This document shows, piece by piece, positions 26,579-46,765 of a stretch of DNA of 64,000 nt. Where the stretch lies: the NCBI GenBank assembly GCA_027082825.1, contig JALWTO010000040.1, forward strand, positions 77,863-141,862, read 5' to 3'. The DNA comes from Acidilobaceae archaeon. Lineage in GTDB: Archaea; Thermoproteota; Thermoprotei_A; Sulfolobales; Acidilobaceae. The notes under the pieces are model-generated. The model was not told the DNA's origin. It saw nothing but the letters and a program-made list of their open reading frames with translations, and did no database searches. Every line of letters begins with the position of its first letter. Position 1 is the stretch's first letter. Both the position numbers and the translations under genes were made by a program.

Positions 26579-27019
26579 CTACTTTCCTATATGTAAGCTA
26601 CTTCTGGTAGCCTTTAGACCTGGTTCTCCATGCTGAACTATCTTAACAGTCAGGCTGAATTCACCTAAGTAATGACCTATCATCCATGGATTTACCTTTA
26701 CTGGCACAAATTCTCTTCCATTATAGACAGCTATGGTAAGACCTATCATTTCAGGTAATATAACCATATCCCTTACGTGGGTCTTTATAACAGGGAGTTT
26801 CTTCACCTTCCCGGATACATACTTTTTCTTAGCCTTTCTTACCTTAGCTAGAAGCCTCCTCTGAGCTGGTGTAAAGCCTCTGAGAACACTTCTTCTCTGT
26901 CTAGCTGGAAAGAGCTTAGCCAGATCCTCTAAACCCATTGAAAGTAACTCCTCTAAAGTCTTGCCACGATATCGGAACCTCTTCCATTCCGGTGGAATTT
27001 CATCAAGTATTTCAGGCAA
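26579..27019 (-). CDS. rps19: 30S ribosomal protein S19 (uS19)
   Basis: 146 aa. [32 protein letters not shown]. First gene of the operon here, with GGAGGGGAT SD upstream. Confidence 0.9.
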
Positions 27020-27156: not shown

Positions 27157-27181
27157 ACTTTCGGTGAAAATTACCGAAAGT
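27157..27181. other. perfect 9-bp stem / 7-nt loop hairpin in the VWA-S19 intergenic region
   Basis: ACTTTCGGT-GAAAATT-ACCGAAAGT read directly. Lies between the oligo-T terminator of the upstream operon and the S19 promoter region. Confidence 0.5.
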
Positions 27182-27231: not shown

Positions 27232-27255
27232 AGAAAACATGAAAAACAAAAACTG
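27232..27255 (-). terminator. oligo-T termination tract after the Cas4-MoxR-VWA operon
   Basis: The minus-strand sense reads CAGTTTTTGTTTTTCATGTTTTCT starting ~10 nt after the stop at 27266. Archaeal terminators are typically T-tracts. Confidence 0.5.
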
Positions 27256-27265
27256 AAACAGCAAT

Positions 27266-29254
27266 TTATCTAACCAAAAGTCTCAATACTTCTCTTGCTA
27301 TAGCCTGTGGCCTATAAGCAACTAAAATCTTTACACCAGCCAGTTCGAATTCATAAGCTAAATTTATGTCGTAGTTAGGAGGCGTTATGATCAAGAGCCT
27401 TGTACCTTTCTTGCAGTTCTTTATCGCATCAATAGGATTACCACTTTTTACAGTTTGCTTTATGTCACTCACGACAATGACCTTTTTTGAATGAGAATCA
27501 CAAGCCTCAACGATAGCATTAAACAGGTCAGTATATCCCTTGAATTCTAATGAGAGAAGAAGTTCTGCTAACCCTGATTTATTGAAAGGGCCTTTTATAG
27601 TCTTGATTTCATGACTGAATAAAGTTAATTTTTCAATGTTTCTTACAAAAAGCATTGCTACAGACAAAGCCCACATACTAAACTCCAACATAGAACCACT
27701 AAGATCCAAAGCCAGGCTCACACTTCTGGACTTAAGCTTCCTTATGTATACTAACGGATCTTCCGAATACCTAGCAAGCCTTAGAACGCTATACTTTACA
27801 TGTACTTTGCCATGTCCTGCCAAAGATAGTTCCTTTCTTGGCAAGAGCCTTAGACCTTCTCTACTGGAAAATCTATAGAGATAGTTTGCAGCTACCTTGA
27901 TGAGGTATTTCTTCGTTAACGGATCAGCTTTCTTATAAAGACCTCTAAGAAGAATCAAGCCCTGGCTTATTGGAAGTTTTATTAATATCTTTTCTAATAG
28001 ATCATTAATTTCACCCTTGACTTCCAGAGCAGATACTGTATTCTTTGCTAAGGTAGCCATGGCTCTGACCGTGTTTGGAGTCAAATTGCCTATCTTGACA
28101 CCATTTAGTTTCTGAACTTTTTTAAGACTCCTCTCTGCAAGATAAAGGGCCATTTCCGATCTTCCTTCATTACCAGTTTCTGCATAAAGAAGTGATTCCC
28201 TTAGCCCTATTGCAGCATCTATAGCCGCAGAAAGAAGCTCGGCCTTCTTACCTCTGTAAGGATTGGTCCTCACAGCCCATAGCAATGAGGGATCAACTTC
28301 TGAAACTATACTGTCTATATCGTCTTCATTCTTTAGTTTTTTCAGTACTTTTGCAAATGCTTCAGCAGCCTTTTCCTCGGGAAGCGAGTTTATTATTTTT
28401 AACTTCTCATCTAAGGATATGTTACTATCAGCTAGGCTCTTAGGATCCTTTAAAGCAATTTTTCTGATATGGACCTCTGTAGCAATGCCAGCTTTGTTAA
28501 GAATGAGCATGACTGTTTTATCCTTGACCATAGAACCTTTCATTATTCTTCTGTTCAGCTCTTCAGCTATCGAAGAAAGAAGTCTTTTATCACTATTCCT
28601 TATAGCTTTTTTTCCTAACTTGACTAGTCTTTTATTTGTAATCTCGCTTAGAAATTCATTAAAGTTAGTACTAGATTCTGCTCCAAGAACAATCTCTTCG
28701 TCATTGAGATTTTTATACGAGCTTATAACTTCATTTAGAGAAGAAAAGCCTTTCTTTGCTAAAGACCTCGTTATCTCCAATAATCTCTGCCAATCAGCTA
28801 CCTTTTCATTACTAGGCTTTCCGTAAATTAAGCCTATATTCCTCAGCTTTAAATATGTCGCCACTCTTTCCTTCTTATTTCTGCCATTTCCAAATAACAT
28901 CTTCTTGGTAACCCTTTGGCCTGGTTTTATTTTAAGAAGCCTGAAGCTTTCATCAATCTCATTCATCAACCTTCTGAAATTCTCTTCTTGCATTCCAATA
29001 TAAAGCAAGCTTTCCAAGACATTGACTAGGATTTTTTCTTCGACTTTATTAAGGGCAAGAGTACCTGATAATATAAATTTTATCTCGTCTAATTCTAGAC
29101 TCTCAGTTTTTCTTAAAACCGAATAACTTTTCAGGATTTTTGCTGTCTCTACAAGCTGACTTGTTCCCACACTTACTCCAGATCTCCTAAGAGTTTCAGC
29201 GATGATAGGCAATCTTTCTATGATATTTTCTACTTTAACTAATTTCAATTCCAA
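27266..29254 (-). CDS. CoxE-like von Willebrand factor A (VWA) domain protein with a long helical N-terminal region
   Basis: 662 aa. The C-terminal ~170 aa form a VWA fold with MIDAS DLSGSM (DxSxS) plus downstream T (GYTD) and D (VVSDI). The N-terminal ~480 aa are helical with no motif I recognise. The start overlaps the ATPase gene by 20 nt. Confidence 0.7.
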   Translation of the reverse strand: MELKLVKVENIIERLPIIAETLRRSGVSVGTSQLVETAKILKSYSVLRKTESLELDEIKFILSGTLALNKVEEKILVNVLESLLYIGMQEENFRRLMNEIDESFRLLKIKPGQRVTKKMLFGNGRNKKERVATYLKLRNIGLIYGKPSNEKVADWQRLLEITRSLAKKGFSSLNEVISSYKNLNDEEIVLGAESSTNFNEFLSEITNKRLVKLGKKAIRNSDKRLLSSIAEELNRRIMKGSMVKDKTVMLILNKAGIATEVHIRKIALKDPKSLADSNISLDEKLKIINSLPEEKAAEAFAKVLKKLKNEDDIDSIVSEVDPSLLWAVRTNPYRGKKAELLSAAIDAAIGLRESLLYAETGNEGRSEMALYLAERSLKKVQKLNGVKIGNLTPNTVRAMATLAKNTVSALEVKGEINDLLEKILIKLPISQGLILLRGLYKKADPLTKKYLIKVAANYLYRFSSREGLRLLPRKELSLAGHGKVHVKYSVLRLARYSEDPLVYIRKLKSRSVSLALDLSGSMLEFSMWALSVAMLFVRNIEKLTLFSHEIKTIKGPFNKSGLAELLLSLEFKGYTDLFNAIVEACDSHSKKVIVVSDIKQTVKSGNPIDAIKNCKKGTRLLIITPPNYDINLAYEFELAGVKILVAYRPQAIAREVLRLLVR

Positions 29255-30173
29255 ATACCTCCTTTATTACATCCATAATAATTTCTTCATCCTCACTTCT
29301 CTTAGCAAGGATACTCATTGCTGCTTCCACAACATCCTCAATTAGCACAACAGTACTTCCTCTCAGCTTTGCTATCGACTGTGACATATTGGACCAAGCT
29401 ACGGCCTCTGCTGTTCCGGGCTTATGACTTAAACCTAGCTTTCTCAGCTTTTCTATGGCTTCAAGCATTAAGTCTATTGTATTTGAGGAAAGATGAGGAC
29501 TTGTGTTACTTCTCATTCTTATTATTTTCATTTCAACGTCCTTAGTAGGATAGTCAAATTTAATCCTTGTTGTTCTTCTTAAGAATGCATCACTCAACTC
29601 ATTTTGAGCAATATCCTCTGGATTACTTGTAAGTATTATCTGGAAACCTACACCCCTAGCTCTAAAGACCCTTTTTAGTTCAGGGACTATTATTCTTCTC
29701 TTATCTATTATATCAAGAAGCATATTCTGAAACTCCTCACTACTTCTCCTTATCTCGTCAACAAGGACACCTGTATCAAGTATTAAGGCCGCTAGAAGGG
29801 GTCTTGGAATAAAGCTTTTTTCGTTAAAGCCCTCTTTCATTGCCATAAGTGGATGAAAATCCCCTATAACCTTGTACTCATCATAATTTTCACTACAAGG
29901 AAGAACAAAGGGATTCCTTCCTGCCCAAAGTTCAAGCAAAGCTTCACCTATCTCAGTTTTTCCTGTCCCAGGAGGACCTTCAAAGAGTACAGGCCTACCG
30001 TTCATGAATGCTGCAAACACTATCGTGACCAATCTCTCATCAACAATAAGCTTGTACTCTTTCTCAAGAGTTTTCACGGCTATGCCAGGTTCTCTTACAG
30101 GCTTTCTTTTTCTTATGACATCTCCATATATTTCCTCAATCTTCTTTGCTATCAGATCTTTCTCGATGCCCAT
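29235..30173 (-). CDS. MoxR/CoxD-like AAA+ ATPase
   Basis: 312 aa. Walker A GPPGTGKTE, Walker B GVLVDEIRRSSEEFQNMLLDIID (MoxR-type DEIxR), sensor-1 region ILTSNPED, and AFLRR. Confidence 0.8.
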   Translation of the reverse strand: MGIEKDLIAKKIEEIYGDVIRKRKPVREPGIAVKTLEKEYKLIVDERLVTIVFAAFMNGRPVLFEGPPGTGKTEIGEALLELWAGRNPFVLPCSENYDEYKVIGDFHPLMAMKEGFNEKSFIPRPLLAALILDTGVLVDEIRRSSEEFQNMLLDIIDKRRIIVPELKRVFRARGVGFQIILTSNPEDIAQNELSDAFLRRTTRIKFDYPTKDVEMKIIRMRSNTSPHLSSNTIDLMLEAIEKLRKLGLSHKPGTAEAVAWSNMSQSIAKLRGSTVVLIEDVVEAAMSILAKRSEDEEIIMDVIKEVFGIEIS

Positions 30174-30873
30174 CGACTAAACTACCCCTTTTATTTAAGG
30201 CATCCTCCTTAATGTAAGGAGCTTTCTCATGAGCTATCCAGTCTCCTGGCTCTAATAGATTTTCTCGAAAATCCTTAAGAATAGGATCTTTTTCAAGAAG
30301 ATCACATAATTTCTTAAAAGGACATTTTTCACATCTTTTACCAGGGTTTGAAGCCGGTAATATACCATAATATTTAACCAGGATCAAATCCTCTATAGCT
30401 TTTAAAACTGTGTTGGCTAGATCGCTGTCAAAAGCATAACTTACTGCTCTATTTCTATACCTAATAATCACCTTGGCAGTTATGTTTTCCTGTATACTAT
30501 ATGAAAGAGCAAATGCATAGGTTGATGCCTGAACTACATCACTTAACCATGCACCTCTTCTAGGACCTCTTCCGCTTTTTCTCTCAATAACTTCTAAATA
30601 GTTTCTATCAATCCTATATGAATCAGGTCTTCCAACTATTTTAACGTTACCTACTGAAACCACTATGGGGCTTTCAACACTATAACCCCTAAATTTGTCA
30701 AGAAGACCATAGAACATGTGAAATATTCTCCCTAAAACGAGGCGTATTTTTTCCTTTAAAGACAGCTTGTGGGGCATGTACCTTTCGAAAAAATAATATC
30801 TTGGGCAATATATAAATGAATGAAGCTCACTAGGCAAAACTATATACTCATTTTTACCAGCATTATTCTTCAA
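30136..30873 (-). CDS. stand-alone Cas4-like PD-(D/E)xK exonuclease (DUF83/RecB-like, Fe-S type)
   Basis: 245 aa with all Cas4 hallmarks in order: N-terminal Cys in SFIYCPRYYFF, GRIFH, GRPDSY (D), VIERKSG (ExK), QASTYAFAL (QxxxY), and C-terminal CEKCPFKKLC (C-x2-C-x5-C). No other cas gene or CRISPR array in the window. Confidence 0.8.
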   Translation of the reverse strand: MKNNAGKNEYIVLPSELHSFIYCPRYYFFERYMPHKLSLKEKIRLVLGRIFHMFYGLLDKFRGYSVESPIVVSVGNVKIVGRPDSYRIDRNYLEVIERKSGRGPRRGAWLSDVVQASTYAFALSYSIQENITAKVIIRYRNRAVSYAFDSDLANTVLKAIEDLILVKYYGILPASNPGKRCEKCPFKKLCDLLEKDPILKDFRENLLEPGDWIAHEKAPYIKEDALNKRGSLVDGHRERSDSKED

Positions 30874-30912
30874 TCATCTGCTACCTCAGGGTAGAAAAAC
30901 TTAAGCGTAATA

Positions 30913-30922
30913 CGATATAAAT
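30913..30922 (-). promoter_or_regulatory. TATA-like box for the Cas4-MoxR-VWA operon
   Basis: The minus-strand sense reads GATTTATATC, ~45 nt upstream of the ATG at 30873. A GAGGT SD-like element lies between them. Confidence 0.4.
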
Positions 30923-30933
30923 CTAGGACCTTC

Positions 30934-31281
30934 CTAAGATCCTTCTGAACCTTCATTAGATGCCTTTTTTGATGACTCTTCTGAAGACTCTTCACCTTTC
31001 TTCTCTTTTTCTTCTCCTAGCTCTTTCTCTAACTTCTTTAGCTCATCCTCTAGCTCTTTCTCTATTTCTTCAACAGGCTTTGGAGGAGGTGTTGTTGCAA
31101 GAGTGTATCCTATCCATCCAAGTATCCCAAAAACCCCCACTACAGCGACAAAGCCTGTTATTTTTAATAGATATATATCCCAATGTGGCCTTGGAGGCCG
31201 GAACAATATCCATGTATATACTATTATCACAACTATTGCCAGAACAAGTAACCCTGAACCCACTAGCTTGTCCCTATTCAA
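30934..31281 (-). CDS. small membrane protein (2 TM helices) with a highly charged E/K/S-rich C-terminal tail
   Basis: 115 aa. Hydrophobic stretches LLVLAIVVIIVYTWILF and ITGFVAVVGVFGILGWIGYTLA, then a PPPKP linker and EEIEKELEDELKKLEKELGEEKEKKGEESSEESS. Confidence 0.55.
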   Translation of the reverse strand: MNRDKLVGSGLLVLAIVVIIVYTWILFRPPRPHWDIYLLKITGFVAVVGVFGILGWIGYTLATTPPPKPVEEIEKELEDELKKLEKELGEEKEKKGEESSEESSKKASNEGSEGS

Positions 31282-31353: not shown

Positions 31354-34300
31354 TCAAGAGGATCTTCTTATTGCCAAAGCTATTTTCTTATCCTCAATCA
31401 TCCACTCCTTTATGAAAGCCTTCTTACTAGGACTTTTCAAGAACAAATTCTTTGCTCTAGTTTCATATTTAATATATTCCTCAAATTGATCTATTGCTTC
31501 TAAAAGATCTTTATCTCTAGTCACAATCCATAAATCTACATAGTCGTTTATATCGAGGTTGGCTTCCTTTCTCATAAATTGTACTCTTCTTACCAAGTCT
31601 CTAGCTAAACCTTCCAGTTCTTCCATTCTGGAAACCCTTATATCCAAGCCTATAAGACCTTGCTTACTTTCCTTAACCTTAAGCCAGTCAGGATACTCAG
31701 CAAGTATCTTAACATGCCTTTTTTCTATTCTCAATCTCTTTCCTTCGACCTCTATACTGTAGGATCCTTTGGAAATGATCTCCTTAGCTATCTCTGATTG
31801 TCTTTTTTTAATTACCTCTAGAACTAGAGGTGAATCTCTTTTAAATGTAGGACCTATTTCTTTTAAAACAGGTTCCACTTTATAGATTTTGAGCCTTCTT
31901 AGCGTCTCGGTTCTTTCAATAACAATATCTTTAACATTTGTCTGAGACTTAATGATATCCAGCAGCTTTGCGATCACCTCTTTAACCACATCATCCTTTG
32001 GAATTATCATTGCCCTTTTGAGGGGTCTTCTTATCTTTATGCCTGCCTCCATCCTTATAGAGTTTATAGTCTCTACAATATCTTTAGCTATATCCATTAA
32101 TCTCTCTAATTTCTTGTTGACAAATCTAGGTTCTGACTCTGGAATTTTCTCTAAATGTATGCTTTCCTCACTCTCTTCACATTCCTTGAAAATCTTTTGG
32201 TAAATATACTCAGTGAAAAATGGTATAAAAGGAGCAGCCGCCAAAAGCCATCTTCTGATGACATAGTATAGAGTTACATATGCTGCTTTTTTATCTAGTG
32301 TATCTTCCTCTACCCATACTCTTCGTCTTATCAGTCTGAGGTACCACCTACTAACATCTTCAACTATAAACCTCCTAATGAGCCTAGCAGCCTCATGAAC
32401 CTCTAGACTGTTCATTGTTTTATGGTATTCAGTTAAAAACGAGTTTACTTTAGATAACATCCACAAATCTTCTATTTTGAGGTGTTCTTTTAAATCTTCT
32501 ATTGTAACCTTTGTGGGATCAAATTTATCTATGCCCATATACATGCTAACAAATGAAAAGATATTCCACATAATAGTAAAATCTCTTCTCATCTCATCAA
32601 GCTCTCTCCAAGAAAACCTCAGATCTTCCCATACTGTGTTTTGAAGGAGCCAAAGTCTCACGACATCTCTTGGTACCTTTGATATAAGCTCATTGAAATC
32701 CACATAATTACCAAGGCTCTTATGCATCTCTCTACCTTTTTCATCGAGCATAAATCCATGAACTAATACCTTTTTATAAGGAGTCCTTCCAAACCCTATT
32801 ACACCACTCCTCAATAAGCTGAAGAACCACCCCCTAATCTGGTCATGACCTTCAACTATAAAGTCGACTGGGTTTAACCTCTTCCATAACTCCTCGTTTT
32901 TAGGATAACCTAGACTAGCATAAAAGGATATACCACTGTCAAACCATACATCAAAAACATCTGGAATCCTTTTCATGACTCCTCCACATTTAGGACATTT
33001 CAGTTTAACTTCATCGATCCAAGGCCTGTGAAGATCTTTTGGAATCTTGCCTCCATACTTTTTAAGCTCATTAACACTACCTATGACTACCTTATGGCCA
33101 CATTTCGTGCAGACCCATATTGGAAGAGGTATCCCCCAGAATCTCTGACGACTTATGACCCAGTCTCTGACGTTCTTAATAAGATTTAAGAACCTAGTTT
33201 TGGCCCATGCAGGTTTCCATTCTATGCTCTCGGCTTCCTTAAGAAGTTCTTTCCTGATCTTTGAGACCCTTATTATCCACTGCCTAGTGGCTCTTAACAC
33301 AAGAGGGGTCTTACATCTCCAACAGACAGGGTATCTGTGAACTACTCTTCCTTCATAAAACAAGTAACCCTTCTTCTTTAGATCGTTTATTATCGCCTTA
33401 TTTGCCTCGGTTCTGAAGTAAAGGCCCTCATATCTACCAGCCCCCTCAACCATTCTCCCATCGTTTCCAACAAGACTGATAACTGGGGCTCCAACCTTCC
33501 TCTTATTTATCTCAAAGTCAATATCTCCATGGCCAGGAGCTGAATGAACCAGCCCTGTTCCTTCATAAGGGGTCACAGCCTCAGGTGCCATGACAACTTT
33601 ATGATATTTAGATAGATCCCTCTGCACAGTTACAAGATCGTCAAGAGGATGCCTATATTCAAGCCCTTCAAGCTCTGAACCCTTAAACTCCTCAAGAATC
33701 TCGTATTCATCTATTCCAACATCTTTCATAACAGCTTCCAATCTCTTTTTTGCTAATATCAAAGTATTATTTCCTACCTTAACCTTAACATAGTCCATGT
33801 CAGGATGTGCCATAACAAATATGTTTGCTGGAAGGGTCCAAGGGGTCGTTGTCCATACTAATAAGTATTCGTTCTCTCTTTTGGCAACTGGAAACTTTAC
33901 ATATATAGAAGGATCCTCCATTTCTTTATACTCAGACACCTCATAGTCAGCTAGAGTTGTCTGACAACGTGGACACCAGTGAACTACTAAAAGCTCCTCA
34001 CTCAAAAGCCCTTTCTCAAACGCCTTCTTAAGAAGCCACCAGCCAGATTCCACATATTCATTTCTGAATGTGATATATGGGTCTTCCCAATTCATAAAGA
34101 CTCCTATTTCCCTAAACTGATTTATCATAGCTTTGATGTTTTCGTATGCAAAATTCCTGCAAGAGTTAACAAACTTATCAATGCCTATCTTTTCGGATAT
34201 ATCTTTTTTCGTGTTTATATTAAACTCCTTCTCTATACTTATCTCTATTGGAAGCCCATGTGTATCAAAACCTGGTCTATCCCATACCCAGAAGCCCATC

Positions 34301-34557
34301 ATCCTATAATAACGTAAAAGAACGTCTTTAATTACTTTATTCCATGCAGTTCCTGGATGTATAATATTAGAAGATGCATATGGCGGCCCATCTAAGAAAT
34401 ATACCTTCCTTCGAGAACTGAAACTTTTCTTTTGAACCTTTTCATAAATGTCGTTTTTTTCCCAAAAACTCATTACATCTCTTTCTATTCTAAATTGATC
34501 ATATCTTTCCTTAGCGAGGGTTTCAGGTATTCTACCCAAAGCTATCACCAGTGTCAT
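31354..34557 (-). CDS. ileS: isoleucine--tRNA ligase
   Basis: 1067 aa, class Ia synthetase. HIGH-region variant PYASSNIIHPGTAWNK, a CP1 editing domain, zinc-finger cysteines (CPRC, CWRCK, CTKCGH, CPKCGG), and a KMSKS variant EMHKSLGN. Confidence 0.92.
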   Translation of the reverse strand: MTLVIALGRIPETLAKERYDQFRIERDVMSFWEKNDIYEKVQKKSFSSRRKVYFLDGPPYASSNIIHPGTAWNKVIKDVLLRYYRMMGFWVWDRPGFDTHGLPIEISIEKEFNINTKKDISEKIGIDKFVNSCRNFAYENIKAMINQFREIGVFMNWEDPYITFRNEYVESGWWLLKKAFEKGLLSEELLVVHWCPRCQTTLADYEVSEYKEMEDPSIYVKFPVAKRENEYLLVWTTTPWTLPANIFVMAHPDMDYVKVKVGNNTLILAKKRLEAVMKDVGIDEYEILEEFKGSELEGLEYRHPLDDLVTVQRDLSKYHKVVMAPEAVTPYEGTGLVHSAPGHGDIDFEINKRKVGAPVISLVGNDGRMVEGAGRYEGLYFRTEANKAIINDLKKKGYLFYEGRVVHRYPVCWRCKTPLVLRATRQWIIRVSKIRKELLKEAESIEWKPAWAKTRFLNLIKNVRDWVISRQRFWGIPLPIWVCTKCGHKVVIGSVNELKKYGGKIPKDLHRPWIDEVKLKCPKCGGVMKRIPDVFDVWFDSGISFYASLGYPKNEELWKRLNPVDFIVEGHDQIRGWFFSLLRSGVIGFGRTPYKKVLVHGFMLDEKGREMHKSLGNYVDFNELISKVPRDVVRLWLLQNTVWEDLRFSWRELDEMRRDFTIMWNIFSFVSMYMGIDKFDPTKVTIEDLKEHLKIEDLWMLSKVNSFLTEYHKTMNSLEVHEAARLIRRFIVEDVSRWYLRLIRRRVWVEEDTLDKKAAYVTLYYVIRRWLLAAAPFIPFFTEYIYQKIFKECEESEESIHLEKIPESEPRFVNKKLERLMDIAKDIVETINSIRMEAGIKIRRPLKRAMIIPKDDVVKEVIAKLLDIIKSQTNVKDIVIERTETLRRLKIYKVEPVLKEIGPTFKRDSPLVLEVIKKRQSEIAKEIISKGSYSIEVEGKRLRIEKRHVKILAEYPDWLKVKESKQGLIGLDIRVSRMEELEGLARDLVRRVQFMRKEANLDINDYVDLWIVTRDKDLLEAIDQFEEYIKYETRAKNLFLKSPSKKAFIKEWMIEDKKIALAIRRSS

Positions 34558-45754: not shown

Positions 45755-46765
45755 TTAATAATACCATGTATCCACGTAGTTATGCTCAGGTACCATCAGA
45801 AGGGGGTTAGTATAAGCTGAACAAGCCTTTCTTAATATACATCCTTCTTCTGAACAACCTCCAATTCTCTTACAAGCTTCTGAACAAGCCTTTCTACATA
45901 CAGGAGCTTCTCTTTTGCAACACTTTCTTCCAAAAGCCCATAGAAAGTCATCTAAAATAAAAGGGTCAACACTTGCTCTTAAGGAAACGAGCCTATAAGC
46001 TTCCCTAGTCGTAAGCCTTAAAAGTATGTCATCTTCCCATGAAAAATTAATCCCTGCTGCTATCTTCTCTAAAGTCTCCTTATCCACCTTAATTAGTCCA
46101 AGCCTTAAGGCTATTCTAACAAGATGATTATCTACAGGAACCTCTTTGTGTTGAGGGTCATTGACTCTCAATACACCTCTTCTCTCTAAAAATTTCGCAA
46201 GGAGATAAGCTTTTTTCTCGACAGGATCTTGGAAGGCTTTAAATATCTTTAGTCTATCTATGAAACCTTCTGCATACTTTTCTTTAAGATAACCTTTAGA
46301 CTCTACAATCAGCTTATACGCACTTCCATCATATAATAGACTAAGTTTCTGTCCTAAATCTCTGAGAAGTTGAACTCTCACTTCAGGATCTGGGGGCCTT
46401 GCTATCCTGTTCTTATAACTTATTGAGAGCCAACCAAGAATATCCTCTTTTGATATCTTTGAGAGCCTATCGGCTGTGAAAAATTCTGGATCTTCAGCAA
46501 GTTTTTTTGAACCTAATCTGTAAAGAAGATCTGCACCATGATAGAACTTTCCATCTACATATCCTTCATAAGGCCTTTTTGCTCTACTTAGCCTGTGATC
46601 CATAGCCACCATTACTAGAAAATACATGGTTATCTCTTCTTTACTTGCATTCTTGGGAGGATAAAATTCGGTATCAACAAAGTAATCTACTGGTAGCATA
46701 GGTATATGTTTCTTCAGTATTTCCCCTACAAGTATTGCTCTCTCCTTGCTAACCTCGACCATCAT
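45755..46765 (-). CDS. HhH-glycosylase-fold protein (AGOG / DUF2419-Qng1-like) with a Cys-rich C-terminal cluster
   Basis: 336 aa. EVPVDNHLVRIALRLGLIKV resembles the PVDxR(V/I)xRxxxxxGLI segment of HhH-GPD-type N-glycosylases. Nine Cys occur within the 38-residue stretch CCKREAPVCRKACSEACKRIGGCSEEGCILRKACSAY near the C-terminus. Confidence 0.35.
   Translation of the reverse strand: MMVEVSKERAILVGEILKKHIPMLPVDYFVDTEFYPPKNASKEEITMYFLVMVAMDHRLSRAKRPYEGYVDGKFYHGADLLYRLGSKKLAEDPEFFTADRLSKISKEDILGWLSISYKNRIARPPDPEVRVQLLRDLGQKLSLLYDGSAYKLIVESKGYLKEKYAEGFIDRLKIFKAFQDPVEKKAYLLAKFLERRGVLRVNDPQHKEVPVDNHLVRIALRLGLIKVDKETLEKIAAGINFSWEDDILLRLTTREAYRLVSLRASVDPFILDDFLWAFGRKCCKREAPVCRKACSEACKRIGGCSEEGCILRKACSAYTNPLLMVPEHNYVDTWYY

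Follow-up and report, generated by a model that had tools for sequence, protein, structure and literature searches.

The window analyzed here is a stretch of 64,000 nucleotides (64 kb) from a heat-loving Acidilobaceae archaeon (contig JALWTO010000040.1, positions 77,863 to 141,862). Its list of open reading frames (ORFs) contains three minus-strand genes with overlapping ends, which encode a Cas4-like protein, an AAA+ ATPase and a VWA protein; the same proteins are encoded on a matching 119.7-kb hot-spring metagenome scaffold. A preliminary description of this DNA, made from the sequence alone, had proposed that the three genes form a conflict or repair module. Comparison with related loci shows that the invariant unit is the ATPase-VWA pair, which is conserved across a whole archaeal order. 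The genes, and the two domains of the VWA protein, are as follows.

30136 to 30873, minus strand: Cas4-family nuclease gene, 245 amino acids (aa), TTG start
29235 to 30173, minus strand: MoxR-class AAA+ ATPase gene, 312 aa, ATG start, AAA_5 domain
27266 to 29254, minus strand: VWA protein gene, 662 aa, TTG start
27845 to 29254, minus strand: N-terminal domain of the VWA protein (residues 1-470), all-helical in the AlphaFold2 model, no recognizable relative
27272 to 27835, minus strand: C-terminal VWA domain (VWA_CoxE) with an intact metal ion-dependent adhesion site (MIDAS)

In the window the Cas4 and ATPase genes overlap by 38 nucleotides (nt) and the ATPase and VWA genes by 20 nt, in agreement with the preliminary description. 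In public gene calls the VWA gene starts two codons later, which gives a protein of 660 aa and an ATPase/VWA overlap of 14 nt. The family assignments originally suggested for the three proteins (Cas4, MoxR-type AAA+ and VWA_CoxE) all hold in searches with profile hidden Markov models (HMMs).

The Cas4 protein scores 80.8 bits against the NCBIfam equivalog TIGR00372 (cut-off 65), 29.2 against 22.7 for the Pfam family PF01930 (Cas_Cas4) and 35 against 22 for PF12705 (PDDEXK_1), and it is matched by the PADLOC Cas4 models (best 2.8e-23). All the catalytic and cysteine motifs attributed to it earlier are present, namely YCPRYY (C23), GRPD (D84), ERK (E97, K99), QASTY (Q115, Y119) and C181-x2-C184-x5-C190; residues C23, D84, E97, K99, Q115, C181, C184 and C190 are invariant in 17 Cas4 orthologues, as also in a 12-sequence set. 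The profile match stops at residue 190, and residues 191-245 constitute a clade-specific C-terminal tail, in which an EPGxW motif is conserved in part (EPG in 12 of the 17 sequences, not in those of loci L084, L089 and L091). Judged by these motifs, the gene encodes a genuine solo Cas4-family PD-(D/E)xK nuclease with a predicted four-cysteine Fe-S cluster site and a predicted 5'-3' DNA end-processing activity. The view that it does not belong to an adaptation module is upheld: a search of the 64 kb for CRISPR arrays was negative (cas1 and cas2 profiles were not run over the whole window), and in the related loci the neighbors of Cas4 are ileS and the AAA-VWA pair, with no adaptation-module setting. 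Two 32-nt direct repeats, 63 nt apart and 78% identical, are located at 45817-45911 and do not form a CRISPR array.

Solo Cas4 genes are reported to evolve mainly vertically, as ordinary cellular genes do (Hudaiberdiev et al. 2017, PMC5704561). The Cas4 of the window resembles them in its RecB-type motifs, in the 1+3 cysteine pattern, in its location outside a CRISPR-cas locus and in its vertical, order-specific inheritance. Its clade differs by the extra C-terminal tail and by the fixed place after ileS and before the MoxR-VWA pair, which is unmentioned in the main text of that paper. The characterized Cas4 nuclease Pcal_0546 (PDB 4R5Q) is matched weakly and partially (E=0.0018). Proteins of this kind are already annotated publicly as Cas4, for example 'CRISPR-associated protein Cas4 [Aeropyrum camini]'.

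The product of the second gene is, by its sequence features, a MoxR-class AAA+ ATPase, as the preliminary description had it: it scores 65.7 bits against Pfam AAA_5 (cut-off 22; E-value 5.7e-18) and contains Walker A (GPPGTGKT) and Walker B (VLVDEIRR) motifs, both invariant. Its best sequence matches in the PDB are midasin AAA modules (1.2e-23), followed by CbbQ and NorQ (1e-8 to 1e-5), and its best NCBIfam match is MadB_ATPase (109.8 bits). The orthologous group is sharply bounded, since its members score 456-589 bits and the next family at most 101 bits. In public genomes the protein is already annotated as 'MoxR family ATPase'. Its family may be the 'APE0892' MoxR subfamily of Snider and Houry (2006).

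The third gene encodes a protein that is classed by sequence as a CoxE-like VWA protein. It passes the threshold of VWA_CoxE (Pfam PF05762, 33.7 bits against 26.4), and its MIDAS is intact (D517-L-S519-G-S521, T575 and D597), with these residues invariant in 50 family members; the 662-aa length and the intact MIDAS had both been noted before. The AlphaFold2 model of the full-length protein has a pLDDT of 90.9, with residues 1 to about 465 all-helical and residues 474-661 in a VWA fold, and the N-terminal domain modeled alone has a pLDDT of 93.2. That no motif could be placed in the helical part is borne out by the absence of Pfam or NCBIfam matches to this domain and of Foldseek matches in the PDB at E<1e-3 when it is searched alone, where only generic helical-repeat proteins were retrieved. 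Thus, as modeled, the N-terminal domain appears to be without a structural relative in the PDB. In an hhalign comparison with a 381-aa CoxE-like protein only residues 394-662 of the window protein align. The Foldseek matches of the full-length model to the VWA domain include TFIIH p44 and ArnB. Ro60/TROVE proteins were the best PDB matches to the full-length model (E=4e-5), yet with TM-scores of 0.19-0.31 and a root-mean-square deviation of 14-18 Å; this lead to Ro60/TROVE homology was rejected because the N-terminal domain alone gives no Ro60 among the top 50 matches and nothing at E<1e-3, and there is no TROVE Pfam match in the protein. Matches to viral CobT-like, Ro-like and DUF2828 proteins (TM-scores at most 0.33) were likewise set aside as reflecting only a generic layout of a helical region plus a vWA domain.

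In a set of 1.8 billion proteins, the VWA family has just 131 representatives when sequences are grouped at 50% identity. Its named members come from Pyrodictium, Pyrofollis and metagenome-assembled genomes (MAGs) of Desulfurococcales, all of them Desulfurococcales or Pyrodictiaceae, and named matches of the ATPase include Pyrolobus, Stetteria and Aeropyrum as well. The matches listed suggest that the pair is absent from Sulfolobales and Thermoproteales.

Related loci were gathered by anchoring on the VWA protein, the ATPase and Cas4, and their genes were mapped by tblastn and HMMs. The gene order ileS-Cas4-AAA-VWA-S19-L22-S3 was observed in many Desulfurococcales-type lineages, including the complete genome of Aeropyrum camini. 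Contigs reach past the ATPase gene in 20 loci, and in each of these the VWA gene overlaps it or directly adjoins it. The Cas4 gene is located directly upstream of the ATPase gene in 17 distinct loci, that of A. camini among them, at identities down to 36% for Cas4 and about 27% for the VWA protein. The adjacency of the three genes extends well outside this genome; the Cas4/ATPase overlap is confined to four loci of the window's clade (L001, L003, L004 and L006). Elsewhere the two genes are separated by a spacer of 20-95 nt, which in Aeropyrum contains a CTATATAC motif, and translational coupling of Cas4 to the ATPase, initially proposed for the whole module, is therefore not general.

The trio does not behave as a unit either. 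Among 16 pair-anchored lineages, Cas4 is directly upstream of the pair in nine, and in seven there is no adjacent Cas4. In Pyrolobus fumarii the order is ileS, a divergent 156-aa ORF, AAA-VWA and a TtuA-like gene; in the MAGs L009 and L012 the pair is linked to gatA-gatB; in L010 a gene for a SPOUT RNA methyltransferase lies upstream of it; and in L090 it is found in a scrambled ribosomal-protein region. In two Thermogladius genomes the order is RNA methyltransferase-L3-L4-L2-AAA-VWA-S19-L22-S3, as verified with Pfam in L013 and by tblastn and ORF reading in L014. In a rough neighbor-joining tree of the ATPase, the Cas4-linked lineages group in a single large clade, inside which the adjacency was lost once (L009/L012), and the Cas4-less Thermogladius, Pyrolobus, L010 and L090 form another clade, so that some two to three gain or loss events suffice to explain the Cas4 adjacency. 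Divergent ORFs of about 150 aa immediately upstream of the ATPase gene in P. fumarii (L007, 7457-7927, minus strand) and in L090 (6461-6913, minus strand) are 35% identical over 77 aa (E about 1e-5) and have no Pfam or NCBIfam family.

The most constant neighbor of the ATPase-VWA pair is rpS19. Of 17 informative loci, 15 have it as the next gene after VWA in the same orientation, and two have it no more than 2 kb away. Other upstream neighbors of the pair are also translation genes, namely ileS, gatAB, the SPOUT RNA methyltransferase gene and L2. Across the order, identity to the window proteins is 55-78% for the ATPase, 65-82% for S19, 50-74% for ileS, 36-58% for Cas4 and 24-57% for the VWA protein. 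The ATPase is thus conserved like a ribosomal protein, matching S19 and exceeding ileS, and Cas4 and the VWA protein are conserved far less.

The candidate expression signals of the three genes and their neighbors are given below, the first three being sequence matches only.

30914 to 30923, minus strand: TATA-like box GATTTATATC, about 41 nt 5' of the Cas4 start codon
30883 to 30887, minus strand: GAGGT, Shine-Dalgarno-like, 9 nt 5' of the Cas4 TTG start
27232 to 27258, minus strand: oligo-T tracts resembling an archaeal terminator, 3' of the VWA stop codon (TAA, 27266-27268)
26579 to 27019, minus strand: rpS19, head of the downstream string S19-L22-S3-L29-Rpp29...
31354 to 34557, minus strand: ileS, upstream neighbor
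30934 to 31281, minus strand: predicted membrane protein gene, 115 aa, Lys/Glu-rich tail, between ileS and Cas4

The Shine-Dalgarno-like motif and the T-tracts named in the preliminary description were found, and the TATA-like box is present, with its coordinates shifted by one base from those given there (30913-30922). The further suggestion that the three genes have their own promoter does not extend beyond the window's lineage, to which GATTTATATC is specific. In most relatives the ileS stop overlaps or abuts the Cas4 start, and the apparent promoter therefore reflects a lineage-specific insertion of the 115-aa membrane-protein gene, which occurs between ileS and Cas4 only in L001, L002 and L006, the close relatives of the window. 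No family could be assigned to this protein in a Pfam search; the part of its gene encoding the C-terminal Lys/Glu-rich tail holds a 21-nt tandem duplication (31018-31059). Upstream of ileS, a divergent gene encodes a SpoVT-AbrB (MazE_antitoxin Pfam) plus ACT protein, which in L082/L083 (4150-4605, minus strand), where ileS is missing, is located upstream of Cas4. It also occurs in L001, L003, L004, L006, L008, L076, L077, L089 and L091, and forms the upstream boundary of the conserved string.

On the downstream side, the ribosomal-protein string of the window opens at S19, as described before. The genes for L3, L4, L23 and L2 were not found in the 64-kb window, and the ribosomal-protein cluster is thus split. 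In relatives the break coincides exactly with the site of the AAA-VWA pair, and in Thermogladius L2-AAA-VWA-S19 are contiguous. In the VWA-S19 spacer (246 nt), a 9-bp stem without mismatches encloses a 7-nt loop, ACTTTCGGT AATTTTC ACCGAAAGT (27157-27181, minus strand), and an A/T-rich segment follows. This stem could act in termination or belong to the leader of the ribosomal-protein operon; taken in full, the spacer folds no better than shuffled sequence (z=-0.40), and no Rfam family is matched in the 64-kb window.

The interpretation of the locus as a conflict module is not supported; its ileS and ribosomal-protein setting, the uniform base composition of the window and the results of dedicated searches speak against it. 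PADLOC reports Cas4 models for the first gene only, with noise for the ATPase and the VWA protein, and thus offers nothing in favor of defense-system membership beyond Cas4 itself. Carriage by mobile elements was rejected as well, since a search of 50,697 phage records yielded nothing closely homologous to the ATPase. The locus is not a variable island but a vertically inherited string of the core genome with housekeeping flanks, and no defense island. The vWA-MoxR ternary conflict systems (Kaur et al. 2020, PMC7159879) share with it the adjacent encoding of a MoxR ATPase and a vWA protein. However, they need a third component (PMC7159879), and the window locus is without VMAP, FtsH, beta-propeller or effector. 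The ATPase is far below the threshold of the Pfam family bpMoxR (14.7 against 27 bits), and the family belongs to the core genome of a single order of unicellular archaea.

MoxR ATPases typically pair with VWA partners and act in target remodeling and metal insertion (PMC13036017; PMC7159879). The NorQ/NorD and CbbQ/CbbO pairs (CGN subfamily) have the same architecture, with a single-module AAA_5 ATPase of about 270-380 aa and a separate larger partner made of a helical N-terminal part and a C-terminal VWA/MIDAS domain, and NorQ and CbbQ are the best matches of the ATPase among solved structures after midasin. Nevertheless, the sequence similarity is remote, NorD and CbbO are not in the top 50 Foldseek matches of the window VWA protein, no nitric-oxide reductase or Rubisco gene is present in any locus examined, and the context in the window is one of ribosomal and translation genes. 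The VWA protein passes the VWA_CoxE threshold, which relates it to the CoxD/CoxE-type pairs, but compared with the 381-aa CoxE-like protein it has about 390 extra, non-aligning N-terminal residues.

The next-nearest relatives are Methanobacteriales pairs of MadB/MadC type (NF047784 / NF047783), at about 30% identity. Identity of the window pair with MadB/MadC was rejected: the ATPase scores 109.8 against a MadB cut-off of 475, and the VWA protein has no MadC match at E<=0.1. The Methanobacteriales relatives score higher than the window proteins and are still below the cut-off. In three Methanobacteriaceae loci (L020, L021 and L022) the MadB/MadC-like pair is followed by a convergent gene for the PD-(D/E)xK nuclease NucS (EndoMS; L022 9221-9973, minus strand); this is three of the seven Methanobacteriales loci with a VWA gene detected by tblastn. 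This adds another, unrelated example of a PD-(D/E)xK nuclease gene next to a MoxR-VWA pair, which may be due to chance.

There is also a likeness to midasin (Rea1/Mdn1). MoxR is regarded as the closest prokaryotic relative of the midasin and dynein AAA modules (PMC3495828), midasin combines AAA_5-type modules with a MIDAS domain and is the top PDB match of the ATPase, and the ribosomal gene context of the window echoes its role in ribosome assembly. In contrast to the single-module, 312-aa ATPase of the window, midasin is one polypeptide with six AAA modules in tandem, a linker and, at its C-terminus, a MIDAS, and its MIDAS/linker region is not in the top 50 Foldseek matches of the window VWA protein. 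A special affinity to midasin was rejected on two grounds: the score adds up weak matches of 14-25 bits to the individual modules, and midasin is likewise the first match of a control AAA_5 protein from Methanobacteriales.

Taken together, these data lead us to propose, with a probability of about 50%, that the pair has a housekeeping function, that Cas4 is its optional neighbor, and that defense is not involved. The functional unit would be a translationally coupled MoxR-class AAA+ ATPase and CoxE-like VWA/MIDAS adaptor. If the pair works as NorQ/NorD and CbbQ/CbbO do, a hexameric ring of the ATPase would engage one adaptor, the adaptor MIDAS would bind an acidic residue of the client, and ATP hydrolysis would remodel the client, for example by assembly, release or metal loading; this remodeling mechanism is taken from what PMC13036017 describes for the MoxR family. 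Given its order-wide conservation and its place almost always directly upstream of rpS19, expression of the pair together with the translation apparatus is probable, and its client may belong there. The solo Cas4 would have joined the string within a single major clade, which comprises Aeropyrum, Acidilobaceae and the window's lineage, as a frequent, optional neighbor and at most an accessory client. Genomic context most consistently points to the translation apparatus as the source of the client, with Cas4 the second candidate and a client elsewhere possible.

Several observations weigh against this proposal. There is no direct evidence for any client of the pair, and the summed score and the control described above reduce the midasin similarity to the already established relatedness of MoxR to midasin and dynein, which is generic to AAA_5 and indicates no special relationship. 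All loci belong to one archaeal order, and with so few gain and loss events shared ancestry could also explain the adjacency to S19. Moreover, S19 is convergent with the pair in L090, and in Pyrolobus it lies 1.7 kb off on the opposite strand, so that co-transcription with S19 would not be universal. Finally, the pair is adjacent in all eight distinct Cas4-anchored loci, and in L082/L083 Cas4 and the pair stay together though ileS is absent, which makes a real link between Cas4 and the pair possible.

The last two observations also speak for a three-gene module, in which the MoxR-VWA pair licenses, loads, matures (at the Fe-S or metal site) or scaffolds Cas4 for repair or conflict. The place of Cas4 immediately before the ATPase gene, kept in 17 loci despite its sequence divergence, the overlaps of 38 nt and 14-20 nt in the window's clade, and the activity of MoxR-VWA pairs as metal-insertion and maturation factors (PMC13036017) are consistent with such a module, and the Glu of the EPGxW motif could serve as a ligand of the MIDAS. 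We nevertheless regard it as rather doubtful. The seven lineages without an adjacent Cas4 have VWA proteins that do not differ systematically from the others, L009 and L012 scoring like the Cas4-linked L015 and L008; the adjacency maps to essentially one clade, and inheritance could explain it; in most lineages Cas4 and the ATPase gene are set apart by a spacer with TATA-like motifs; and the candidate ligand is missing from three of the Cas4 tails (L084, L089 and L091). The lack of a variable island and of PADLOC defense matches for the pair, and the conservation of the ATPase at a housekeeping level, argue in the same direction.

It is also conceivable, though in our opinion unlikely, that the synteny merely reflects descent: the client would be encoded elsewhere, in the CoxD/CoxE manner, Cas4 and the ribosomal genes would be functionally unrelated to the pair, and the tight packing would be that of a compact genome. 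The restriction of all loci to one order agrees with this, as do the co-directional overlaps that are common nearby in L001 (S3/L29, L29/Rpp29 and S4e/L5), the rearrangement of both flanks of the pair in some lineages, and the non-ribosomal clients of the nearest curated families (MadB/MadC, CbbQ/NorQ and CoxE). On the other hand, the adjacency of the VWA gene and S19 has outlasted four or more distinct rearrangements on the upstream side, the pair splits the near-universal L2-S19 junction in Thermogladius and is still found among ribosomal-protein gene fragments in the scrambled L090, and no candidate metalloenzyme client recurs near it in the loci examined. Less likely again is the specific possibility that the pair, embedded at the L2|S19 junction of the ribosomal-protein cluster, is a prokaryotic, split functional analogue of midasin/Rea1, an ATP-driven, MIDAS-based remodeler that would remove a factor or protein from nascent ribosomal particles or place one on them, with Cas4 as an optional accessory for nucleic-acid trimming.

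In the literature we found no paper on the Cas4-MoxR-VWA adjacency or on the embedding of the pair in the ribosomal-protein cluster, in line with the earlier statement that no described system of this kind was known. The locus is best filed as a lineage-specific member of the MoxR-VWA type with an uncharacterized adaptor domain, beside a known kind of solo Cas4. If the housekeeping interpretation is true, the finding is a modest one, a sharply bounded, Desulfurococcales-specific MoxR-VWA family whose adaptor is predicted to contain a confidently folded helical domain of 470 residues with no structural relative. In addition, among the archaeal solo Cas4 genes, which have long been enigmatic, one clade gains a fixed genomic address. 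A client role for Cas4, if confirmed, would make it the first Cas4 to be regulated by ATP or matured by a chaperone, and an action on ribosomal particles would make the pair an archaeal counterpart of the midasin step in eukaryotic ribosome assembly. The cultured Aeropyrum carries the same gene order, and both outcomes are testable there.

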